DNA of 64,000 nucleotides from Patescibacteria group bacterium. GTDB taxonomy: Bacteria > Patescibacteriota > Microgenomatia > JAMCZE01. The position numbers and the translations under genes are program-made. The notes beneath the pieces were generated by a model, which was not told the DNA's origin, made no database searches, and was given only the letters and a program-made list of their open reading frames with translations. Shown here in pieces: positions 1,116 to 49,740 of the stretch. How positions within the stretch are numbered: the stretch's first letter is position 1; each line of letters begins with the position of its first letter. The DNA is taken from positions 341,200 to 405,199 of the forward strand of contig JAMCRP010000001.1 in NCBI GenBank assembly GCA_023380635.1, given 5' to 3'.

Positions 1116-1820
1116 GTGACCAAATTTGCTGCCTCACTGGCCGTTTTTCTTCTTTTGGTTCTCACCGTTAAGCTCATTCCCCTGCATTTCGGCGCGACGG
1201 CTGCTAATAATAGTATTCTCAGTCCGAAAAGCTCACAGGCTCCGACTGACGAAACGGGCAACCGGCAAATTCCAGCGGAACAAAAAATTTTAGGCGACGC
1301 CGCAAACAAAACGTGCCACGGTTTTAATGATCTGGATATTTTAGTAGATAAATTCCATGGCTTGCCGGCTGACTACGCTCCAGCAGATTTAACGGAAGTT
1401 GAAGGTTTTCCGGTCCGGGCCGAAGCAGCAACTTATTTAACTAATTTGCTTGCGGCCATGCGCCGAAGGGGACTGGATATTACCATTGACTCTACCTATC
1501 GCACCTATAGCCAGCAAAAGACCATTTATGATCAGAGGCACCGGGGAAATTTAACCGCCGCTCCGGCTGGGTACTCCGAACACCAGCTGGGCACCGCGGT
1601 CGATTTTAATATTCTTTATCCCTCCGCCGCCTGGACCTGGCTGGACCAAAACGCCCAAAAATTCGGGTTTGTCATGTCCTACCGCTCTAACCAAATAACG
1701 CGCAGCGGCTACACTTTCGAACCCTGGCACTGGCGCTATGTGGGCGTCGATCTGGCCACAAAAATCCGTTATTCGTCGGCAATCCCTCAAAGTTTTTACC
1801 AACCTCTCGGCTGCCGATAA
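1116..1820 (+). CDS. D-alanyl-D-alanine carboxypeptidase / peptidase M15 (VanY-like) with N-terminal signal/TM
   Basis: M15 zinc-peptidase motifs are present: YRTYSQQ, SEHQLGTAVDF, EPWHWRY. The N-terminus is hydrophobic. Confidence 0.8.
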   Translation: MTKFAASLAVFLLLVLTVKLIPLHFGATAANNSILSPKSSQAPTDETGNRQIPAEQKILGDAANKTCHGFNDLDILVDKFHGLPADYAPADLTEVEGFPVRAEAATYLTNLLAAMRRRGLDITIDSTYRTYSQQKTIYDQRHRGNLTAAPAGYSEHQLGTAVDFNILYPSAAWTWLDQNAQKFGFVMSYRSNQITRSGYTFEPWHWRYVGVDLATKIRYSSAIPQSFYQPLGCR

Positions 1821-1825
1821 TCCCT

Positions 1826-1863
1826 ATTGACAAGAGTTAGCACTCATGGTATCTTAGTGCCAA
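1826..1863 (+). promoter_or_regulatory. Putative hrcA promoter (TTGACA-N17-TATCTT) with an overlapping CIRCE-like inverted repeat
   Basis: The sequence is ttgaca-agagTTAGCACTCatggtatctTAGTGCCAA. The left arm matches the CIRCE consensus perfectly; the right arm is degenerate. It sits ~75 nt upstream of the hrcA ATG. Confidence 0.55.
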
Positions 1864-1939
1864 TCTTGTTCACTGGTAGCTAGAGACTAGTTTCTAGTCA
1901 GAAAAACTAGCATCCAGTTTCCAGTAACCAGTATCCAGA

Positions 1940-2671
1940 ATGGAAGATTTGACTTCAAGACAAATTAAAATCCTCAAGCACATTATTGAGGAATACATCG
2001 AAACCGCCGAACCGGTGGGTTCGGAAAAGCTGGACAAAAAATTCGCCCTCGGTGTCTCCCCTGCCACTTTAAGAAACGAAATGGCCGCTTTAACGGACAA
2101 AGGTTATCTCAAACAGATCCATACCAGCGCCGGCCGCACTCCCACCCCCAAAGCCTTGCGTCTTTATGTTGCCAACTTAATGCAGCCTAAAAATCTTTCC
2201 GTTACCGACGAAGTCAAAATTAAGGAGAAGGTTATGGACTATAAAACCCAGTTTGAAAAAGCTTTGCGCGAAGCCACCCGGGAATTGGCTGCCACCACCC
2301 AATCTTTGGCCGTCGCGGCAGATTCTGACGGGGATATTTATTATTCTGGCACCGCCAACATTTTGGACATGCCGGAATTTTTTGATATCGATTTAACCCG
2401 CAACGTTTTGTCTCTGTTAGATCATTTTGATTATCTCAACAAGATTTTCGGCCAGGCTAATGACGATTCCGGCAAGATCACCCATGTCCTCTTGGGCGAA
2501 GATCTGGGCTCGGACTATCTCTCGTCCTGCGCTGTAGTTTTTCAGCACTTCGGGACTCCGGATAAACATCACGGCGCGATCGGCGTCGTCGGGCCTTACC
2601 GGCTCAATTATCCGCGGCTGGTCCCGGCCGTGAATTATTTTGGGGATTTACTTAATCAGTTGCTGGGATAA
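1940..2671 (+). CDS. hrcA: Heat-inducible transcription repressor HrcA (short form)
   Basis: The N-terminal wHTH begins LTSRQIKILKHIIEEYIETAEPVGSEKL. It is the first gene of an hrcA-grpE-dnaK-dnaJ arrangement. Confidence 0.85.
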   Translation: MEDLTSRQIKILKHIIEEYIETAEPVGSEKLDKKFALGVSPATLRNEMAALTDKGYLKQIHTSAGRTPTPKALRLYVANLMQPKNLSVTDEVKIKEKVMDYKTQFEKALREATRELAATTQSLAVAADSDGDIYYSGTANILDMPEFFDIDLTRNVLSLLDHFDYLNKIFGQANDDSGKITHVLLGEDLGSDYLSSCAVVFQHFGTPDKHHGAIGVVGPYRLNYPRLVPAVNYFGDLLNQLLG

Positions 2672-5191: not shown

Positions 5192-6100
5192 ATGGCAGAT
5201 AAAGATTTTTACCAGACTTTAGGAGTTTCCAAAAACGCCACGGACGCGGAGATTAAAGCCGCTTACCGCAAAGCGGCTCTGCAATGGCATCCGGACCGTA
5301 ATAAAGCCCCGGAAGCCAGCGAGAAATTTAAAGAGGTGAACGAAGCGTACGAGGTTTTGTCGAATCCTCAAAAACGCCAAACCTATGATCAGTTTGGATC
5401 AGCTGCTTTTCAACAAGGCCAAGGCTTCCAAGGTAATCCCTTTGCCGGAGGTTTTGGTGGACAGGGCCAGCAAGGACCATTTACCTATTCGTATCGAACT
5501 TACGGCGGCAACGCCGGGGAAAATCCCTTTGAAGGCGCGTTTGGTGGCGGCTTTTCCGATCCGTTTGAGATTTTTGAACAGTTTTTCGGCGGCGGTTTCA
5601 CCGGGGGTCCCAGACGCCAAAGACGGCCGGCCTATCAATTGGAAATTTCTTTCATGGATGCCGTCAAAGGCGCGGAAAAACAGATTGAAATCAACGGCAA
5701 AGAAATGAAAATTAAAATCCCGGCTGGTGTCGATGAAGGCACCCGGGTCCGCTTTGGCAATTTCGATATTGTCTTATCTGTCAGACCAGATAAAACTTTC
5801 CAACGCGAAGGACCAAATATCTATGTTACGTCCGAAATTGATTATCCCAGCGCCGTTCTAGGGACGACTTTAGAGGTCCCGACTATTGATGGTCCGGTGA
5901 CTATTAAAGTACCGGCAGGAACACAACCGGATACCATGATTCGATTACGCGGCCGAGGCGTAAAGCTGCCAAACAGCAGCCATGTCGGTGACGAATATGT
6001 CCGCGTCAAAGTCAAAATCCCCTCTCGAGTTTCTTCCGAACAGCGCGATCTTCTCGAAGAACTGCGCAAATCCTCTAAAAAAAGAAGCGGGTGGTTTTAA
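5192..6100 (+). CDS. dnaJ: DnaJ-family co-chaperone, type II / CbpA-like (J-domain plus G/F-rich region, no CxxCxGxG zinc finger)
   Basis: J-domain YYQTLGVSKNATDAEIKAAYRKAALQWHPDRN with HPD, then a Gly/Phe-rich linker. No Cys repeats are present. Confidence 0.85.
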   Translation: MADKDFYQTLGVSKNATDAEIKAAYRKAALQWHPDRNKAPEASEKFKEVNEAYEVLSNPQKRQTYDQFGSAAFQQGQGFQGNPFAGGFGGQGQQGPFTYSYRTYGGNAGENPFEGAFGGGFSDPFEIFEQFFGGGFTGGPRRQRRPAYQLEISFMDAVKGAEKQIEINGKEMKIKIPAGVDEGTRVRFGNFDIVLSVRPDKTFQREGPNIYVTSEIDYPSAVLGTTLEVPTIDGPVTIKVPAGTQPDTMIRLRGRGVKLPNSSHVGDEYVRVKVKIPSRVSSEQRDLLEELRKSSKKRSGWF

Positions 6101-6104
6101 AGAA

Positions 6105-6135
6105 CAAGATTATCAAAAACGTTAATAATAACGTT
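6105..6135. terminator. AT-rich hairpin (aacgtta-ataa-taacgtt) between convergent dnaJ and the ORF at 6147-6506; possible bidirectional terminator
   Basis: A 7-bp inverted repeat seen directly in the convergent intergenic region. The stem is weak and there is no long U-tract. Confidence 0.3.
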
Positions 6136-6146
6136 ATTCGCGGGAG

Positions 6147-6506
6147 TTAGAATTGGCGGTTGAGAAAATCGGGGTTGAAAAGTTTAACTCGAGTTGACGG
6201 GCCGTCATAATTCACTGCCGATCCCGGCATTCCCGGAACCTCAAAAGCCCCCGTCTTTTCGGTAACATCATAATAACTTCCGCAGTAATTTACCGTTGCT
6301 CTATTCATAGATCCATAATCAGACCGATCTTTAATGGTCATCTCTTTTCTTAGGCCTCTAAATCTTATGTAAGCAAAATGGTTATCCCCGATTTCTACTA
6401 TACTTTTACCGATTCTTTTCGGCCTGACACCGTCCTTACCTCCGACACAAACATCAATCGGATGGCCTTCCGGCGCTCGGAACCTTGTTGTCATGTCGGG
6501 AATCAT
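6147..6506 (-). CDS. Hypothetical 119-aa protein (orphan, opposite strand to its neighbours)
   Basis: Intact ORF with AAGGAG 11 nt upstream of the ATG. No family recognised from the sequence. Confidence 0.45.
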   Translation of the reverse strand: MIPDMTTRFRAPEGHPIDVCVGGKDGVRPKRIGKSIVEIGDNHFAYIRFRGLRKEMTIKDRSDYGSMNRATVNYCGSYYDVTEKTGAFEVPGMPGSAVNYDGPSTRVKLFNPDFLNRQF

Positions 6507-6525
6507 ACCACAATCCGCCCACTCC

Positions 6526-6555
6526 TTGACGCGATGGTTTTACTAGTGTTACAAT
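6526..6555 (+). promoter_or_regulatory. Candidate sigma70-type promoter for nusA (TTGACG-N18-TACAAT)
   Basis: Hexamers seen ~60 nt upstream of the nusA ATG. Confidence 0.35.
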
Positions 6556-6616
6556 AAATCCAAGTTAGGTAGGAATTGCAGGTGGGAGAAATCCCGCCTT
6601 TTATTTTGATAAATTT

Positions 6617-7717
6617 ATGCCGGCACAAGTCCGATCAGAATTTGCTTTAGCTTTAAACCAAGTCGCTTCCGAGCGCAATATCTCGGTGGAGACGATTTTG
6701 GCTAACATTGAAGAAGCGATGCTTATGGCCTATCGCAAAGACCGGGCTATGTATGGCGAGGTCGTGGAAGTGGAACAGTTTGTCGCGTCCGTCGATTCGA
6801 ACACCGGCGAAGCCAGAATTTACCGTAAGAAAGAAGACGGCTCCCGGGGCGAAGATGTCACTCCACCGGGTTTTGGCCGGATTGCCGCCCAAACTGCTGG
6901 TCAAGTTCTCCGCCAAAAAATCCGCGAAGCGGAGAAAAAGGCTGTGATTGAAGATTTTTCGCAGCGAATCGGGACCGCTGTTTCCGGAATGGTGCTGCGC
7001 TTTGACGGACCAAATATTATTATCGATATCGGCCGGGCAGAGGCCGTCATGCCGCCTGCTGAACAAAATCCGGCGGAACACTATCGCTTAAACCAGAGAC
7101 TCATTTTTTACATTAAAGAAATCCGCGAATCGGCCCGGGGCCAGGAAGTGGTCGTTTCCCGCGCTTCCGAGAACCTGGTCGTTGAACTTTTCCGCAAGGA
7201 AGTGCCGGAATTCCAATCGGGCGCTGTCATAATTAAACTGATCGCCCGCGAAGCCGGCGGCCGCACCAAACTGGCCGTCGCCTCCACCCAATCCGGGGTT
7301 GATCCGGTCGGCGCGTCAGTCGGTCAAAAAGGCGTCCGGGTTCAGGCCGTCATTAACGAACTGGGCGGCAATGAAAAAGTGGATGTTATTCAATACACGG
7401 AAGATACTGCTGCTTTAATTGCTGCTGCTTTGGCTCCGGCCAAAGATATTGAAGTCATCTTAAACCAGGAAGAAAAAACGGCCATTGCCCTGGTCCCCGA
7501 CGATCAGTTATCTCTGGCCATTGGCCGGGAAGGCCAAAATGTCCGCTTGGCCGCCAAACTTCTGGGTGAATGGAAAATTGATATTAAAGGAAAAGCTGAG
7601 TATGCAAAGAAAGATGAAGTAAAAGCCGAAGGGACAAAAGACGAAGAAAAAAGAGAAGAGAAAAAAGCGGAAGTCGAGCAAAGCGCGAAAAGCGAGAATC
7701 AAAATGCAGCCGAGTAA
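6617..7717 (+). CDS. nusA: Transcription termination/antitermination factor NusA
   Basis: N-terminal domain, S1 and tandem KH domains, and a C-terminal acidic/lysine-rich tail. Immediately followed by infB. Confidence 0.92.
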   Translation: MPAQVRSEFALALNQVASERNISVETILANIEEAMLMAYRKDRAMYGEVVEVEQFVASVDSNTGEARIYRKKEDGSRGEDVTPPGFGRIAAQTAGQVLRQKIREAEKKAVIEDFSQRIGTAVSGMVLRFDGPNIIIDIGRAEAVMPPAEQNPAEHYRLNQRLIFYIKEIRESARGQEVVVSRASENLVVELFRKEVPEFQSGAVIIKLIAREAGGRTKLAVASTQSGVDPVGASVGQKGVRVQAVINELGGNEKVDVIQYTEDTAALIAAALAPAKDIEVILNQEEKTAIALVPDDQLSLAIGREGQNVRLAAKLLGEWKIDIKGKAEYAKKDEVKAEGTKDEEKREEKKAEVEQSAKSENQNAAE

Positions 7718-29010: not shown

Positions 29011-29105
29011 ATCTAGTCGTGATTAAACACCAGCAGATTCTAAAAAGCAACCACTAAATTGTCTCGTTTTGGCAATCTTTTCGTGTCCTAGAGAAAAAGC
29101 CTATG

Positions 29106-35992: not shown

Positions 35993-36319
35993 TTAGGGAT
36001 TTTGAGAAGAGACAGTGTATAAAACACCCCTTGTTTTACCTACTTTTGCTATGTAGCCGTTATCAACCAAATATTTTAAATCATATCGAAGCAATCGGGG
36101 ATCAACGGCTAGAAAACGCCGATGGAGAAAGTCAGCAGAGACACTTTGATGGTCCTGAATCGTTTGAAAAATTTCCTGCCGCCGTGGTGATAACTCCTGT
36201 GAATTTCGGATTAGTTGGGCCGTTTCTACTAAAAGCTTGAGAATCTCTTTTTGTTTTTTGGGATACCTAAGTGACTTGAGGGATTTAAGTTTATCTTTTA
36301 TCAGGAGGCAATTATCCAT
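35993..36319 (-). CDS. Small winged-helix (wHTH) protein of unknown function inserted between rplO and secY
   Basis: 108-aa ORF in tight operon spacing; the C-terminal half (SADFLHRRFLAVDPRLLRYDLKYLVDNGYIAKVGKTRGVLYTV) looks like a winged HTH. Not L30. Confidence 0.5.
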   Translation of the reverse strand: MDNCLLIKDKLKSLKSLRYPKKQKEILKLLVETAQLIRNSQELSPRRQEIFQTIQDHQSVSADFLHRRFLAVDPRLLRYDLKYLVDNGYIAKVGKTRGVLYTVSSQNP

Positions 36320-44673: not shown

Positions 44674-45861
44674 TTAGGCGATAATTTTTGTGACCACTCC
44701 GGATCCCACAGTCTTGCCGCCTTCGCGAATGGCAAAGCGCATCCCATCCTCCATGGCAACCGGTTGAATGAGCTTGATTTTCATCTTCGCGTTATCTCCC
44801 GGCATCACCATTTCCACACCCTGCTCCAAGGTGACTTCCCCGGTCACATCCGTGGTGCGGATGTAGAACTGCGGGCGATACCCGGAAAAGAACGGCGTGT
44901 GACGGCCACCTTCTTCTTTGGCCAGGATATATACCTGAGCCTCGAACTCCGTGTGCGGCGTCACTGAGCCCGGTTTGGCAATCACCTGACCGCGCTCCAC
45001 CTGGTCTTTTTCCACGCCGCGCAAAAGCAGTCCGACATTATCGCCGGCCTGGCCTTCATCCAACTGTTTGCGAAACATTTCGACCCCGGTAACGACGGTC
45101 TTTTGAGTCGCTTTCAGACCAACGATTTCCATTTCTTCGTTAACCTTGACGACACCACGCTCGATTCTTCCAGTCACGACCGTGCCGCGGCCTTTGATCG
45201 AGAAAACATCCTCCACCGGCATCAGGAATGGTTTATCCAGTTCCCGAACGGGAGTGGGAATGTAGCTGTCGACCGCATCCATTAGCTCCATGATGTGTTT
45301 TTCCTGTTCGGCATCACCTTCCAAGGCTTTGAGGGCCGAACCTCGAATGATCGGCGCTTTGTCGCCGTCAAAACCATATTTGGTTAACAGCTCCCTAACT
45401 TCGACCTCAACCAAATCGAGTAGTTCCGGATCCGACACCATGTCGACTTTGTTTAAGAAGACGACAATGGCCGGCACATTAACCTGCTTGGCCAACAGCA
45501 AGTGCTCCCGGGTTTGAGCCATCGGACCATCAGCGGCGGACACGACCAAAATCGCGCCGTCAACCTGAGCCGCGCCGGTGATCATGTTCTTGATGTAATC
45601 GGCATGGCCCGGCATATCAATGTGGGCATAGTGCCGTTTCTCGGTTTCATACTCAACATGGGTGATATTAATCGTGACGCCACGGGCTTTTTCTTCCGGA
45701 GCGTTATCGATTTGATCGTAGGCCAAAGCTTTCGCAAAGCCTTTCTTGGCCAAAACGGTCGTAATGGCTGAAGTTAAAGTGGTCTTACCGTGGTCGACAT
45801 GACCAATGGTCCCAATGTTAACATGGGGCTTGGAACGAGTGAATTTTGCGGCATCTGCCAT
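44674..45861 (-). CDS. tuf: Elongation factor Tu
   Basis: [18 protein letters not shown] and NKVD motifs; 395 aa. Confidence 0.98.
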
Positions 45862-45931
45862 ATTCTTTTAATTTATTAATTGATAAATAACTAATAGAGC
45901 CAAAAGATGGCTCTCTTACGCGATTGTTACG

Positions 45932-45960
45932 ATTTTAAAGCAGAGCTCAAACGATTGCAA
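45932..45960 (-). promoter_or_regulatory. Candidate tuf promoter (TTGCAA-N17-TAAAAT) followed by a 5' hairpin (agagcca-tcttt-tggctct) and an AU-rich, SD-less leader
   Basis: Hexamers and a 7-bp hairpin (45895-45913) read on the minus strand upstream of the tuf ATG. Confidence 0.45.
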
Positions 45961-45968
45961 TAGGGAAA

Positions 45969-46262
45969 CTAGCAGGCGAAGACTTTATTCTCCAACCGCT
46001 TTAGCCTTGGCAAAATGTTCTTATCTATTTCCGTGTTTGTAGCCGTAACCGCATCGAAAAGGGTATCAAAACCCTCGGTCATCTCCTTATGCAAACTGTC
46101 TATTTTTGTGTTTAACCTAATATCAACGTCAGTGATTTGCTGCTTGATACCATCTAACTCGCCATAGATGCCGACTATCTTTCTGTCGATAGGCACCAGT
46201 TTTTGGTCAATTAATTTCCCGATATTTTCTAGCGTAAGGTCGTTTTTCTTCGGAGACTTCAT
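45969..46262 (-). CDS. Hypothetical 97-aa coiled-coil protein (island ORF)
   Basis: Intact ORF in a low-GC insertion between tuf and fusA. Heptad-like pattern, weak RBS, no family recognised. Confidence 0.4.
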   Translation of the reverse strand: MKSPKKNDLTLENIGKLIDQKLVPIDRKIVGIYGELDGIKQQITDVDIRLNTKIDSLHKEMTEGFDTLFDAVTATNTEIDKNILPRLKRLENKVFAC

Positions 46263-46373
46263 GTCATCATGATCTCACAACTTTTGCTTAAAAACAATCC
46301 ATCCAACTAAATTCTTATAATAGGATTACAAACACTTTACTTATTTGCTTCTGGCCTATAAACTGTAATAAAT

Positions 46374-46748
46374 ATGGCAACAAAGACACAAAAGATCGTA
46401 AAGGGAAAAGAAACCAACGTTAACGTATGGCTTGGTCTAATATTTTTTATTTCGATCGTCTACAAAATAATCGAGTCAAACCCCAGTGGCGCAATATCGG
46501 TAGTAGCGATTGGTATATCAGTAATCTGGAATTTAGTCAGCTCCCCAATTATTGTCTTAGCGATAATAGCTTCAATTTTCTTTGGAAACTGGCAAAACTG
46601 GTTTAAAACAGACATAGAAAAGGAGTACGACAAAGAGCAGATGGGTTGGCTGTTGAGTAAAATCGGAGATATTCTTAATTGGATATTTCTTCTTTATGGT
46701 ATTCAAATAGCGTTTATGATAATAAAAACGCTATGGAGACTAGCCTGA
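46374..46748 (+). CDS. Hypothetical 4-TM small membrane protein (island ORF, 124 aa)
   Basis: Four hydrophobic segments. Opposite strand to the operon, and the ATG directly follows a TGTAATAAAT -10-like element (possibly leaderless). Confidence 0.45.
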   Translation: MATKTQKIVKGKETNVNVWLGLIFFISIVYKIIESNPSGAISVVAIGISVIWNLVSSPIIVLAIIASIFFGNWQNWFKTDIEKEYDKEQMGWLLSKIGDILNWIFLLYGIQIAFMIIKTLWRLA

Positions 46749-46855
46749 AATAGCTTCGATAATTCCCCCGGAATCCTAAAATTCTTGAAGCTCCGAAACT
46801 TTAGCTAACGGAACTTGACCATACTGATTTAATTGATATATAAGGAGGTGATTAT

Positions 46856-46993
46856 ATGGACGACCAAGAAAAAATAAAGACTTCGATAACGGATTCAGGT
46901 GGAAACATCGATCCGGACAAATTGGCTTACATGCTCTACATGATCCAAAAGGAGTTAAAAGATCTTAACAAGATAGCGAACGTTGAGAGGTGA
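46856..46993 (+). CDS. Hypothetical 45-aa hydrophilic peptide (island ORF)
   Basis: Hand-translated MDDQEKIKTSITDSGGNIDPDKLAYMLYMIQKELKDLNKIANVER. AAGGAGGTG lies 5 nt upstream, with TTGACC-N16-TATATA further upstream. Confidence 0.45.
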   Translation: MDDQEKIKTSITDSGGNIDPDKLAYMLYMIQKELKDLNKIANVER

Positions 46994-47047
46994 GCTGTTC
47001 TTGGCAAATACCCGCAGGGAAAAGATCCTCTTTTTAGGGAGTAAGCA

Positions 47048-47140
47048 TTAGTCTCGTTTTACCCAGATACCATTTTTTATGATATATGGGCCATCGACGG
47101 GGCTCTGGCTTACGACCATGAGCAAAATCCAAAATACCAT
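47048..47140 (-). CDS. Hypothetical 30-aa peptide with a hydrophobic N-terminus (island ORF)
   Basis: Hand-translated MVFWILLMVVSQSPVDGPYIIKNGIWVKRD. GAGGAGGTG lies 7 nt upstream, preceded by a GC-rich structured ~240-nt leader. Confidence 0.35.
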   Translation of the reverse strand: MVFWILLMVVSQSPVDGPYIIKNGIWVKRD

Positions 47141-47381
47141 ACCTTTTCACCTCCTCTCGTAATTTTTAGTGGCTAACTGCCACCCTCCCCCGAGAGGGGT
47201 GCTTTCCCCTGCAGATTTTTACCTGCAACTTTTCAAAGTGCAATAAAAAAGCCAACCATAAAAGGTTGACTAAGTGGTTATATTTTGGCACTCTAACGGT
47301 TAGAGTGCAAGGCCAAAAATCGACGAAAAAAGAGCGAATTATTTAAGAATTACTTCTTCGCAACAATTTGTCAGTTGCTGG
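47141..47381 (-). other. Structured non-coding region downstream of the fusA stop (several GC-rich hairpins; candidate promoter TTGCAC-N16-TAAAAT; weak terminator caacc-uuuuau-gguug-GCUUUUUU)
   Basis: Stem-loops seen directly: gcactctaac-ggt-tagagtgc, gggg-aaagca-cccc, gtggc-agtta-gccac. No tmRNA, RNase P or SRP signature was recognised. Confidence 0.35.
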
Positions 47382-49493
47382 TTAACTCTGTCTCACAGTT
47401 CCTGATTTTGAAACCAGCTGTTCCTGGATGTTTCGCGGGACTTCTTCGTAGTGGGAAGCTTCCATGTAATAGGAAGCCCGGCCCTGGGTGATCGAGCGCA
47501 GTTTGGTCGCGTAGCCGGAAAGTTCGGCCAGCGGGACCATAGCCAAAATGATCGTGGCGTTACCCCGTTTAGAAGTGCCAAGTATCTGGGACCTTTTAGC
47601 GGATAAATCGCCGATAACATCACCCATGAATTCGTCGGGGGTGGTCACTTCGACCTTCATTATTGGTTCCAGAAGAACCATATCCGCCTTTTTACAAGCG
47701 TCCTGAAGAGCCATAGAACCCGCTATTTGAAATGCGACATCGGAGGAATCAACATCATGATAGGACCCGTCGTACAAAGTAACTTTAATATCGGTCATCG
47801 GATAGCCGGCCAAAATGCCGTTATCAGCGCATTCTTTCGAACCTTTTTCAACCGGCGGAATGAATTCAGCCGGGATGGCACCACCCTTGATGGCGTTCAC
47901 AAATTCCCAGCCTTCGCCGCGCGGTTTCGGTTCTACTTTCAGAAGAGCATGGCCATATTGCCCGCGGCCACCGGTCTGGCGGATATATTTCCCTTCGCCA
48001 TTGGCATCATGCTTAATAGTTTCTTTATAAGCGACTTGCGGTGCCCCAACATTAGTGTCGACACCCATTTCGTCTTTCATTCTTCTGACCCAAACTTCCA
48101 GTTGTAACTCTCCGACTCCGGCAATAATCGTCTGGCCGGTTTCTTTATCGCTTCTGACATGAACCGTCGGGTCTTCTTCCATAACCCGCTGTAGGGCATA
48201 GCCCATTTTCTCCTGATCGGATTTAGTCTTGGGTTCAATAGCCAAAGAAATAACCGGCTCGGGGAAAGTAATTCCTTCCAGAACAATCGGATGTTGCGGG
48301 TCAGAAAGAGTGTCGCCGGTGCGGGTATCTTTGAGACCAACTACCGCCACAATTTCTCCGGCGTAAGCTTCCTCGATATCTTCCCGGTTATTGGCGTGCA
48401 TCAACAACAGGCGGCCAATTCTTTCCTGCTGACCTTTAGTCGCGTTATAAACATAAGAGCCGGATTTGATAACTCCCGAATAGACCCGGACATAATAAAG
48501 TTTTCCCACATGCGGATCGAGTTGGGCCTTAAAGGCCAGACCGGTAAACGGCGCGTCGATTTTCTGTTCCCGAGTTTCTTCCTGACCGGTTTTCGGATTG
48601 GTCCCGGTAATGGCCGGTCTTTCCAACGGCGAGGGCAGATAGTCAACAATGGCGTCCAAAAGCGGCTGGACTCCCTTATTGCGAAGAGATGTTCCGGTGT
48701 ACATCGGCACCAGTTGGTAGGAAATAACCGCTTTGCGCAGTCCCGCTTTTAATTCTTCCAGACTTAATGTTTCGCCGTTGAGATATTTTTCCAGAAGAAC
48801 CTCATCGCTTTCGGCAATCTGTTCGACCAGTTGATGGCGATATTTATCGACTTCGGCTTTGTCCAATCCTTCCGGTATCTCTTTTTTGACCTCAAATTTG
48901 GCCCCAAGTTCGTCGCCGCCCCAAACATAGGCTTCTTCGGCCAATAAATCGTAAACACCCTTGAAGGTGTTCTCTACCCCGATTGGGAGTACCATTACCG
49001 CCGGTTTAACGCCTAATCTTTGTTTTACCGCCTCGACGGTTTTAAAGAAATTAGCCCCCAGTTTGTCGATCTTATTCACAAAAATAATCCGCGGGACTTT
49101 ATATTTATCCGCCTGCCGCCAGACAGTTTCCGTTTGTGATTGCACGGTCTCCTCAGCATCAAGAATCGTGACCGCCCCGTCAAGAACCCGCAAGGACCGT
49201 TCCACTTCCGCCGTGAAGTCTACATGACCCGGAGTATCAATAATGTTAATGCGGTAGTCACGCCAGAAAGTGGTCGTGGCGGCAGAGACAATGGTAATTC
49301 CCCGTTCCCGTTCCTGAGTCATCCAGTCCATCTGGGTCGAGCCTTCATCAATGTCTCCGATTTTGTAAGTTTTGCCGGTGTAATACAAAATCCGCTCGGT
49401 CGTGGTGGTTTTGCCCGCGTCAATATGAGCAATGATCCCGATGTTACGGACCTTGTCTAAAGAAACATTGCGATTTTTGGTGGTGTCAGCCAT
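47382..49493 (-). CDS. fusA: Elongation factor G
   Basis: [32 protein letters not shown] and G' domains II-V. The true start is probably MADTTKNR... (ATG 49493); the ORF-track frame reads through an upstream hairpin to 49541. Confidence 0.97.
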
Positions 49494-49527
49494 TTTTACA
49501 AAAAATTCGTGCCGAACTTCCGGCACG
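49494..49527 (-). promoter_or_regulatory. Hairpin (cgugccg-gaaguu-cggcacg) plus U6 immediately upstream of the fusA AUG; terminator/attenuator-like 5' structure
   Basis: On the minus strand: CGUGCCGGAAGUUCGGCACGAAUUUUUUGUAAAAAUG. No SD. Candidate promoter TTGGAT-N18-TATAAT at 49533-49562. Confidence 0.45.
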
Positions 49528-49571
49528 AGATAATTATACAAAATTAACTTCGCCTAATCCAAGTTAATCCG

Positions 49572-49740
49572 AATAAACATTCGTAGAAAGTCTGGCAGCT
49601 CTTCTTCTTTTTAATCTTCGTCTGCTCTTCTCGACAAGGTTACTCGGGGTAGGTATTTCCACAACCTGCAACTGTCTTTCTATGCCATCTTTATCAGTAA
49701 AAACAATTTTCTTAATGGTCGATTCGTTAGCTTCTGTCAT
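49572..49740 (-). CDS. Hypothetical 56-aa basic protein between rpsG and fusA
   Basis: Hand-translated MTEANESTIKKIVFTDKDGIERQLQVVEIPTPSNLVEKSRRRLKRRRAARLSTNVYSD. GAGGTGG lies 7 nt upstream, and the start is 4 nt after the rpsG stop. Confidence 0.35.

Follow-up and report, generated by a model that had tools for sequence, protein, structure and literature searches.

We analyzed a 64,000-nucleotide (nt) stretch of the small genome of a Patescibacteria group bacterium (assembly GCA_023380635.1, contig JAMCRP010000001.1, positions 341,200 to 405,199 of the forward strand; hereafter the window), and in particular the junction at which fusA is followed by tuf. The window keeps the gene order of the canonical str operon, rpsL-rpsG-fusA-tuf, with the S10 operon after it. 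Unlike in the canonical operon, however, fusA and tuf stand 1.5 kb apart, each with an apparent promoter and leader hairpin of its own, and additional open reading frames (ORFs) are present between rpsG and fusA as well as between fusA and tuf. The GC content of the gap between fusA and tuf is 0.381, compared with 0.529 for tuf, 0.492 for fusA, and 0.469 for the whole 64 kb. Two proteins of the gap, M1403_02245 and M1403_02250, are listed at NCBI under Patescibacteria group bacterium, on a 559-kb contig. An initial annotation of this DNA had placed four ORFs and a hairpin-rich non-coding stretch in the AT-rich gap, and had viewed the ensemble as one island, with features consistent with a foreign origin. 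The ORFs (here ORF97, ORF124, ORF45, and ORF30, after the lengths of their products in amino acids, aa) and the structured stretch were all recovered (Table 1), whereas the single foreign island was not, for the reasons set out below.

Table 1. Features of the fusA-tuf junction and of the adjoining gene starts, in window coordinates; promoters, leaders, and terminators are predictions (SD, Shine-Dalgarno sequence)
Feature	Position	Strand	Size	Details
tuf	44674..45861	-		
fusA-tuf gap	45862..47381		1,520 bp	
tuf leader hairpin	45896..45914	-		AGAGCC-atctttt-GGCTCT, then a U-rich tract; 17 nt past the tuf -10 box
tuf promoter	45932..45960	-		TTGCAA-17 nt-TAAAAT; begins 9 nt past the ORF97 stop codon
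ORF97	45969..46262	-	97 aa	Locus tag M1403_02245
ORF97 promoter region	46263..46317	-		-35 TTGTTT (46297..46292), 17-nt spacer, -10 GATCAT (46274..46269), 6 nt to the ATG
Filler particular to this genome	46318..47381		1,064 bp	Holds ORF124, ORF45, and ORF30
ORF124	46374..46748	+	124 aa	Locus tag M1403_02250; divergent from ORF97
ORF45	46856..46993	+	45 aa	Hydrophilic; SD AGGAGGTG at 46843..46850
ORF30	47140..47048	-	30 aa	Convergent with ORF45; SD AGGAGGTG at 47155..47148
Structured leader of ORF30	47141..47210	-		Pairing of CACCCCUCUCG with the SD of ORF30 (CGAGAGGAGGUG) encloses a small hairpin
Terminator-like hairpin beyond ORF30	47195..47220	+		AGGGGTGCTTTCCCCT plus GCAGATTTTT; putative function
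Intrinsic-terminator-like hairpin past fusA	47250..47271	-		8 pairs, then TTTTTATT; ~110 nt past the fusA stop; present also in the 256-nt fold
Perfect 10-bp palindrome	47288..47308			GCACTCTAAC-c-GTTAGAGTGC; from repeat search and folds
fusA	47382..49541	-		
fusA leader hairpin	49527..49499	-		CGTGCCG-gaagtt-CGGCACG plus T6; just before ATG 49493
fusA promoter	49562..49533	-		TTGGAT-18-TATAAT

Two kinds of gene start are seen in the gap. The sequence AGGAGGTG occurs twice in the 64 kb, both times within the gap, at 5 nt from the ATG of ORF45 and 7 nt from that of ORF30, whereas of 57 gene starts examined in the window outside the island, just 5 are preceded by an SD core of at least 5 nt. The contrast between these near-perfect ribosome-binding sites and the SD-poor core genes, to which the initial annotation had drawn attention, is thus real. 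At least two copies of the motif arose, however, in 29 of 100 shuffles, so that the count by itself is not unusual; what is unusual about the pair is its clustering and its distance to the ATGs. ORF97 exemplifies the second kind: nine window genes, ORF97, rpsO, and secY among them, have a -10-like box of the TAnnnT type whose end is exactly 6 nt from the start codon (starts with this spacing include 10071, 12887, 19911, 27901, 35956, 36319, 46262, and 62281). Because this spacing recurs and SD motifs are rare, the signals suggest that leaderless translation is widespread in this genome, with leaderless transcripts as the native mode of initiation.

The base composition of the ORFs does not set them apart from their surroundings. 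GC at third codon positions (GC3) is 0.541 in ORF97, 0.400 in ORF124, 0.543 in ORF45, and 0.516 in ORF30, in all cases at most 1.4 standard deviations from the core genes (0.48 ± 0.058), and GC3 exceeds GC2 in every one of them, as in genuine genes of this genome. The low GC of the gap resides in the spacers and in codon positions 1 and 2; that of ORF97 stems from the latter, its product being rich in Lys, Asp, Ile, and Asn. The deviation in synonymous-site GC sought as a sign of a horizontally acquired island was therefore absent from all four ORFs, and for ORF124, ORF45, and ORF30 composition provides no evidence of recent transfer.

The segment next to tuf, approximately 110 bp long, consists of a conserved predicted promoter and leader. 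Comparison with loci fetched from relatives (numbered with the prefix L) revealed that the motif (T)TTCCCxC-TTGCAA-N17/18-TA(A/T)AAT is kept in L003, L005, L006, L007, L008, and L011, and also in L099, which lacks ORF97 and where it directly follows a hydrolase gene. A hairpin with differing stem sequences, then GTTATTT, occupies the same position in L003, L005, L006, L007, L011, L098, and L099, while in L008 the -10 box lies 6 nt from the tuf ATG. These leaders were compared as folds of the individual sequences anchored on the promoter; alignment with MAFFT followed by RNAalifold was poor and no consensus structure for the tuf leaders emerged from it. In the window, this hairpin is probably both the stem-loop of the tuf 5' leader and a stop signal for ORF97 transcripts. 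As read from the sequence, the promoter-plus-hairpin design is common to fusA and tuf. For fusA, it is followed by the start used by NCBI (ATG 49493); the longer 719-aa version from a TTG codon is probably wrong. A further hairpin resembling an intrinsic terminator follows the fusA stop.

The initial annotation had described all four products as orphans, which holds for ORF124, ORF45, and ORF30 but not for ORF97, whose family is restricted to Patescibacteria. Its relatives formed 28 clusters (90% clustering) among 5.8 billion proteins, and 18 representatives were retrieved at E ≤ 1e-10 among 1.84 billion proteins; the family numbers about 30 proteins, 73-162 aa long, and where organism names are present, they are Patescibacteria or Microgenomates only. 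The window protein matches the family profile at 2e-34 and is similar over its full length (alignments A1 and A2), including the family motifs MKSxxxxxTLxNIGKLIDQKL, VGIYGELDGxKQQ, GFDxVxDG, and EPRIKxLExKVFA, between which a variable number of short repeats is found. A distant match, P0028 (E = 3e-5), adjoins rplU and ftsW and was excluded from the family. The AlphaFold model of ORF97, built on a 33-sequence alignment, is a single continuous helix over residues 11-96 (predicted local distance difference test, pLDDT, 85), and each family protein is likewise predicted to be one long helix forming a coiled coil. Searches of Pfam, NCBIfam, and PDB with ORF97 returned only sub-threshold coiled-coil similarity. 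Family members gave such matches to the generic Pfam families Baculo_PEP_C, NPV_P10, DUF1664, and Apolipoprotein, with which ORF97 shares a long amphipathic helix of heptad and hendecad spacing; it does not reach a gathering score, however, the likeness is compositional, and its own motifs are absent there. PDB sequence matches of ORF97 and of the family profiles were generic coiled coils (spike HR1, apolipoprotein, TRIM25) and were set aside. PDB entry 7o97, a hypothetical protein of the candidate phyla radiation (CPR), matched in these searches at E = 1e-3 and could not be traced in the literature. As a working guess held with low confidence, ORF97 could be an oligomeric structural or scaffolding coiled coil.

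ORF97 occupies a fixed position. In all nine other lineages retrieved through ORF97 (loci L003, L005/L092, L006, L007, L008-L010, L011, L093, and L098, one additional locus having come from a metagenome scan with alignment A1), the fusA-tuf junction contains the homologue, which immediately precedes tuf and shares its strand; tuf and fusA of these relatives are 89-96% and 82-89% identical to those of the window, respectively. Pairwise identities of ORF97 and fusA correlate (Pearson 0.86, Spearman 0.75; 21 pairs) and resolve the same three sub-clades, and ORF97 has evolved much faster than fusA. Where synonymous sites are unsaturated and the ratio of non-synonymous to synonymous substitution rates (dN/dS) could be computed, it amounts to 0.17-0.25, which places ORF97 under purifying selection as judged from its substitution pattern. 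Upstream of the start codon, a block of ~40 nt is conserved as GATTGTTTTTAATCAAAAGTTGTGGGATTATGGnAATATG in L003, L005, and L011 and partly in L006 and L007, and it carries what we predict to be a native-style promoter of its own with a start of the leaderless type. Given the co-divergence with fusA, the dN/dS values, and the core-like GC3, ORF97 reads as a real, vertically inherited, clade-specific coding gene, native rather than foreign.

As a check on ascertainment bias, we also started from a sequence that clusters with the window fusA at 90%, which led to contigs L099-L101 from three samples, with tuf and fusA 96.8% and 91.6% identical to the window genes. There, the position of ORF97 is taken by a 273-aa alpha/beta hydrolase (Abhydrolase_6; 8120..8941 in L099, and also in L100 and L101), after which the conserved tuf promoter follows directly, and hmmsearch with --max found no ORF97 homologue at E ≤ 10. 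Because the junction of L099-L101 holds a hydrolase and no ORF97, the latter appears to be dispensable, although it has long resided in the slot.

Unlike ORF97 and the promoter region of tuf, the 1.06 kb on the fusA side was missing from all sampled relatives: when the gap was compared with all fetched loci by sensitive blastn, matches were limited to the region of ORF97 and the 5' end of tuf, and the filler showed no DNA similarity. Accordingly, the absence of the insert from related junctions, proposed earlier as a check of the island, holds for the filler and not for the remainder of the gap; conversely, conservation at the junction together with core-like composition is found for ORF97 and not for the other three ORFs. 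Among 5.8 billion proteins, ORF124 retrieved itself only, and neither Pfam, PHROGs, PADLOC, nor NCBIfam gave a family match above sub-threshold transmembrane noise. It has 3-4 hydrophobic segments, and its AlphaFold2 model contains four helices (pLDDT 72; predicted template modeling score, pTM, 0.33), for which Foldseek found no structural match in PDB; nor did it show similarity to the small membrane proteins of L006. As an ORF of at least 124 aa arose in 16 of 2,000 dinucleotide shuffles of the insert, we regard ORF124 as a probable small membrane protein. ORF45 and ORF30 have no homologue in relatives or in the family libraries; in the ORF45 region, a gene is called on the Logan contig. The N-terminus of ORF30 is hydrophobic for about 10 residues (MVFWILLMVV), the remainder being polar.

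The structured stretch named in the initial annotation corresponds to the 256 nt downstream of fusA, which fold at -83.6 kcal/mol compared with -60.1 ± 4.6 kcal/mol in shuffles (z = -5.1). Part of it forms a leader of ORF30 for which the minimum-free-energy and centroid structures agree (-29 kcal/mol, z = -4.1) and in which the ORF30 SD is predicted to be sequestered. This leader was not found conserved elsewhere, and no Rfam model matched the structured stretch (~240 nt) at its gathering score; relaxing the cutoff to E ≤ 10 returned noise alone, namely Phe_leader at 21 bits (cutoff 55) and ar15 at 15 bits (cutoff 40). Our guess is that ORF124, ORF45, and ORF30 make up a lineage-specific small-membrane-protein cassette, which may be partly non-functional.

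What fills the slot in place of these three ORFs varies from one relative to the next. L003 carries an AAA_14/DUF4143 ATPase (5793..7052), scored by PADLOC as the candidate defense system PDC-S01 (3e-108); L006 has two small membrane proteins, L011 a 129-aa soluble ORF, L098 a 107-aa ORF between inverted repeats of ~35 nt, and L099-L101 the hydrolase described above. The slot of L010 is reduced to 168 nt with palindromes resembling repetitive extragenic palindromic (REP) elements and no ORF, and those of L007 and L093 to only 45 nt. Contents differ even between genomes whose fusA genes are 91-94% identical, which indicates that turnover is rapid with respect to the sampling. A spacious junction is also general among CPR-labelled genomes. 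Although fusA and tuf are contiguous in most bacteria, as initially assumed, gaps of >400 nt were found in 10 of the 13 CPR-labelled loci of an 80-locus, tuf-anchored sample (median ~540 nt, maximum 4.5 kb), whereas they are mostly <200 nt in the sampled non-CPR bacteria; a 4.7-kb gap belongs to L013, the non-CPR label of which is doubtful. Other CPR junctions carry a pilin-like TQ/SpaA protein, a pyridoxal phosphate-dependent enzyme, a tRNA-binding-domain protein, and many orphans. A tuf scan of genome contigs returned mostly distant phyla (≤81% identity), that is, outgroups and no close relatives.

Further features of these loci were recorded. The inverted repeats of L098 (~1770..2470) consist of CTTGTCATTGCGAGCGAATGCGAAGCAATCTTC and its complement, and the L010 spacer (~2215..2383) is made of similar REP-like palindromes; such repeats may be mobile agents that seed the slot. 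The PDC-S01 ATPase (AAA_14 plus DUF4143) recurs between fusA and tuf in L013, a more distant locus (5919..7124, E = 7e-127), and hence in two separate CPR lineages, but is absent from the window, where no ORF resembles it. In several further CPR lineages, small ORFs with Phd/YefM-antitoxin-like N-termini lie in the junction, as in L041 (9533..9841) and L046 (9579..9830), with sub-threshold Pfam matches (E = 6e-4 and 3e-3), and ORFs in L075 (4361..4693) and L023 (8963..9334) show a similar resemblance by eye only; no partner toxin was seen beside any of the four. The tuf genes of L012-L014, L016, and L027, all from metagenome-assembled genomes, are those closest to the window tuf in this sample (79-82%), and the gene order of L043 and L075 is CPR-like, so the labels Gammaproteobacteria, Pseudomonadales, Vitreimonas, Bordetella, or Bdellovibrionales attached to these seven loci look doubtful.

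Collectively, these data make it likely that the str operon is transcriptionally fragmented and that its fusA-tuf gap is a hypervariable slot, which in this genome has three layers. The first would comprise native signals, namely the terminator-like hairpin past fusA and the clade-conserved promoter and leader hairpin of tuf, with the similar module in front of fusA. The second would be ORF97, expressed from its own leaderless-type promoter and, where present, always the tuf-proximal occupant. The third would be the 1.06-kb filler with its orphan four-helix membrane protein, its 45-aa peptide, and a convergent 30-aa peptide whose SD is locked in a hairpin. In this arrangement, each leader hairpin would end the upstream transcript and cap the next one, and fusA, ORF97, and tuf would be separate transcription units. 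Because each of the three would have start signals of its own, insertions past the fusA stop and ahead of the tuf promoter should have no polar effect on tuf and would probably be harmless, so that cargo could be gained and lost quickly. The slot resembles hypervariable intergenic islets in its conserved flanks, its relative-specific contents, and its lower-GC cargo mostly of no assigned function; unlike typical islets, it sits inside the most conserved translation operon, has no integrase, tRNA, or repeat boundary in the window, and includes one occupant, ORF97, that is long-lived and fixed in position.

In one Patescibacteria clade, the rpsL-rpsG-fusA-tuf unit known from textbooks appears to have been split into parts with promoters of their own. 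Its fusA-tuf junction, and seemingly that between rpsG and fusA, exchanges cargo at a pace exceeding family-level divergence. The analysis also defines a small coiled-coil family with a fixed genomic address, and it supplies specific predictions, of leaderless starts and of promoters paired with hairpins, in a phylum whose transcripts have hardly been mapped. For annotation, the lesson is that low GC and orphan status by themselves should not be taken as a sign of foreign origin in these genomes. We regard the finding as a real structural oddity, not surprising in kind and with no bearing on a long-standing question; the literature searched contained no pertinent account of insertions between fusA and tuf in CPR bacteria or of novel features associated with their ribosomes.

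Several observations weigh against this interpretation. A consensus scan of the region finds three promoter-like sites, compared with 3.9 in shuffles, and three terminator-like sites, compared with 1.9; promoters, terminators, and leaderless starts are sequence predictions throughout, and the insulation of the units and any biochemical role are inferred. Nearly all ORF97 contexts were retrieved through ORF97 itself, and the sole relative sampled independently of it is without ORF97. The missing homologues of the filler ORFs partly reflect sparse sampling, as fusA of the nearest genomes is only 89-92% identical. Finally, ORF45 and ORF30 may not be genes, both being short enough to occur by chance, with their SDs as the sole argument.

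This last point leads to a view of the filler that we consider unlikely, although it fares best among the alternatives: the 1.06 kb would be decaying, non-functional DNA left by past cargo turnover, with ORF45, ORF30, and perhaps ORF124 unexpressed and the hairpins representing leftover terminators or REP-like palindromes. The complete lack of homologues and the chance-like length of the short ORFs fit such an origin, as do the slots of relatives that can be empty (45-168 nt) and the REP-like palindromes of L010 and L098. Decay does not, however, readily account for a 124-codon ORF with four hydrophobic helices, improbable by chance on the shuffling result given above, for the correct spacing before ATGs of both AGGAGGTG sites of the 64 kb, or for a GC3 higher than GC2 in all ORFs, as in real genes.

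The single-module origin put forward in the initial annotation, in which a contiguous fusA-tuf pair would have been split by the horizontal acquisition of all 1.5 kb as a single accessory module (of toxin/immunity or abortive-infection type, or the remnant of a phage), we hold to be quite improbable. It would explain the low GC, the three orphan ORFs, and two perfect SDs in a genome that rarely uses them, and it finds some echo in the PDC-S01 ATPases of L003 and L013 and in the weak Phd/YefM-like ORFs of the L041 and L046 junctions. Yet ORF97, syntenic in nine other lineages and co-diverging with fusA, and the ~110 bp next to tuf, with their conserved promoter, read as native, and the GC3 of all four ORFs is core-like; absence at the orthologous site, the other sign of a horizontal island, holds true for the filler and is untrue for ORF97 and the tuf promoter region. 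Nor did any search support the proposed identities. PADLOC gave no match at E ≤ 1 for the six ORFs tested, PHROGs returned weak coiled-coil noise only, and no toxin or antitoxin domain was detected in any window ORF with Pfam, NCBIfam, or PADLOC. Comparison with 50,697 phage records by blastn and tblastn produced no match, and IMG/VR contained no relative of ORF124 or of the ORF97 family. Around the gap, direct or inverted repeats were limited to short chance matches; the family libraries revealed no integrase or transposase domain, and the sole tRNA gene of the window, at 29105, does not flank the gap. The locus thus shows no recognizable toxin, defense, phage, or mobile signature, and a function is assigned to none of the four ORFs. 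We give a similarly poor chance to the joint claim that the Patescibacteria fusA-tuf junction is a dedicated and insulated landing pad within the translation super-operon, capturing small accessory or defense-like cargo time and again beside very highly expressed genes, that ORF97 is a hitherto unrecognized, clade-specific elongation-factor or ribosome partner, and that ORF124, ORF45, and ORF30 form a new small membrane-acting module with an SD-locked micro-ORF under antisense control.

Even less credit is due to a narrower idea, in which ORF30 with its SD-sequestering leader would be a type-I-toxin-like gene under antisense read-through from ORF124-ORF45, and the filler would be a small module serving addiction or stress. 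In silico, ORF30 does resemble a type I toxin gene in its small size, in the strong SD held in a stable predicted hairpin (z = -4.1), and in the hydrophobicity of its N-terminus. Its layout, convergent and overlapping, is also suggestive, since a plus-strand terminator-like site lies past ORF30 and an ORF124-ORF45 transcript would therefore cross it in antisense, with full overlap. On the other hand, its hydrophobic run of ~10 residues is too short for a membrane helix and contrasts with the ~18 or more of type I toxins, there is no homology to known toxins or Rfam antitoxin RNAs, the promoter spotted by eye (TTGCAC-16-TAAAAA) is weak and none is convincing, and a 30-codon ORF is expected by chance and shows no conservation. 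Co-directional toxin and antitoxin genes with recognizable domains, as in type II systems, were not found in the window. Least probable of all is that ORF97 is a clade-specific translation accessory factor, for example a partner of elongation factor EF-Tu or of the ribosome, kept upstream of tuf for co-expression, as its invariant fusA-tuf position in 10 lineages including the window, its purifying selection, and its native expression signals might suggest, given that the closest independently sampled relative has a hydrolase instead, that the family is very narrow and evolves much faster than fusA, that a generic coiled coil offers no informative similarity, and that a tuf promoter downstream of ORF97 makes co-transcription with tuf unnecessary.

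Two other junctions of the window also hold small ORFs. A 108-aa, low-GC ORF (35993..36319, minus strand) lies between rplO and secY in the spc operon; it has weak similarity to winged-helix domains (AgaR/DeoR N-terminal) and no match in the fetched relatives. Between rpsG and fusA, a 58-aa orphan ORF (49564..49740, minus strand) encodes a very basic C-terminus (KSRRRLKRRRAARL). In relatives, the latter junction carries DUF3800 in L003 and an orphan ORF of 420-425 aa on the opposite strand in L099-L101, and it therefore looks variable too.

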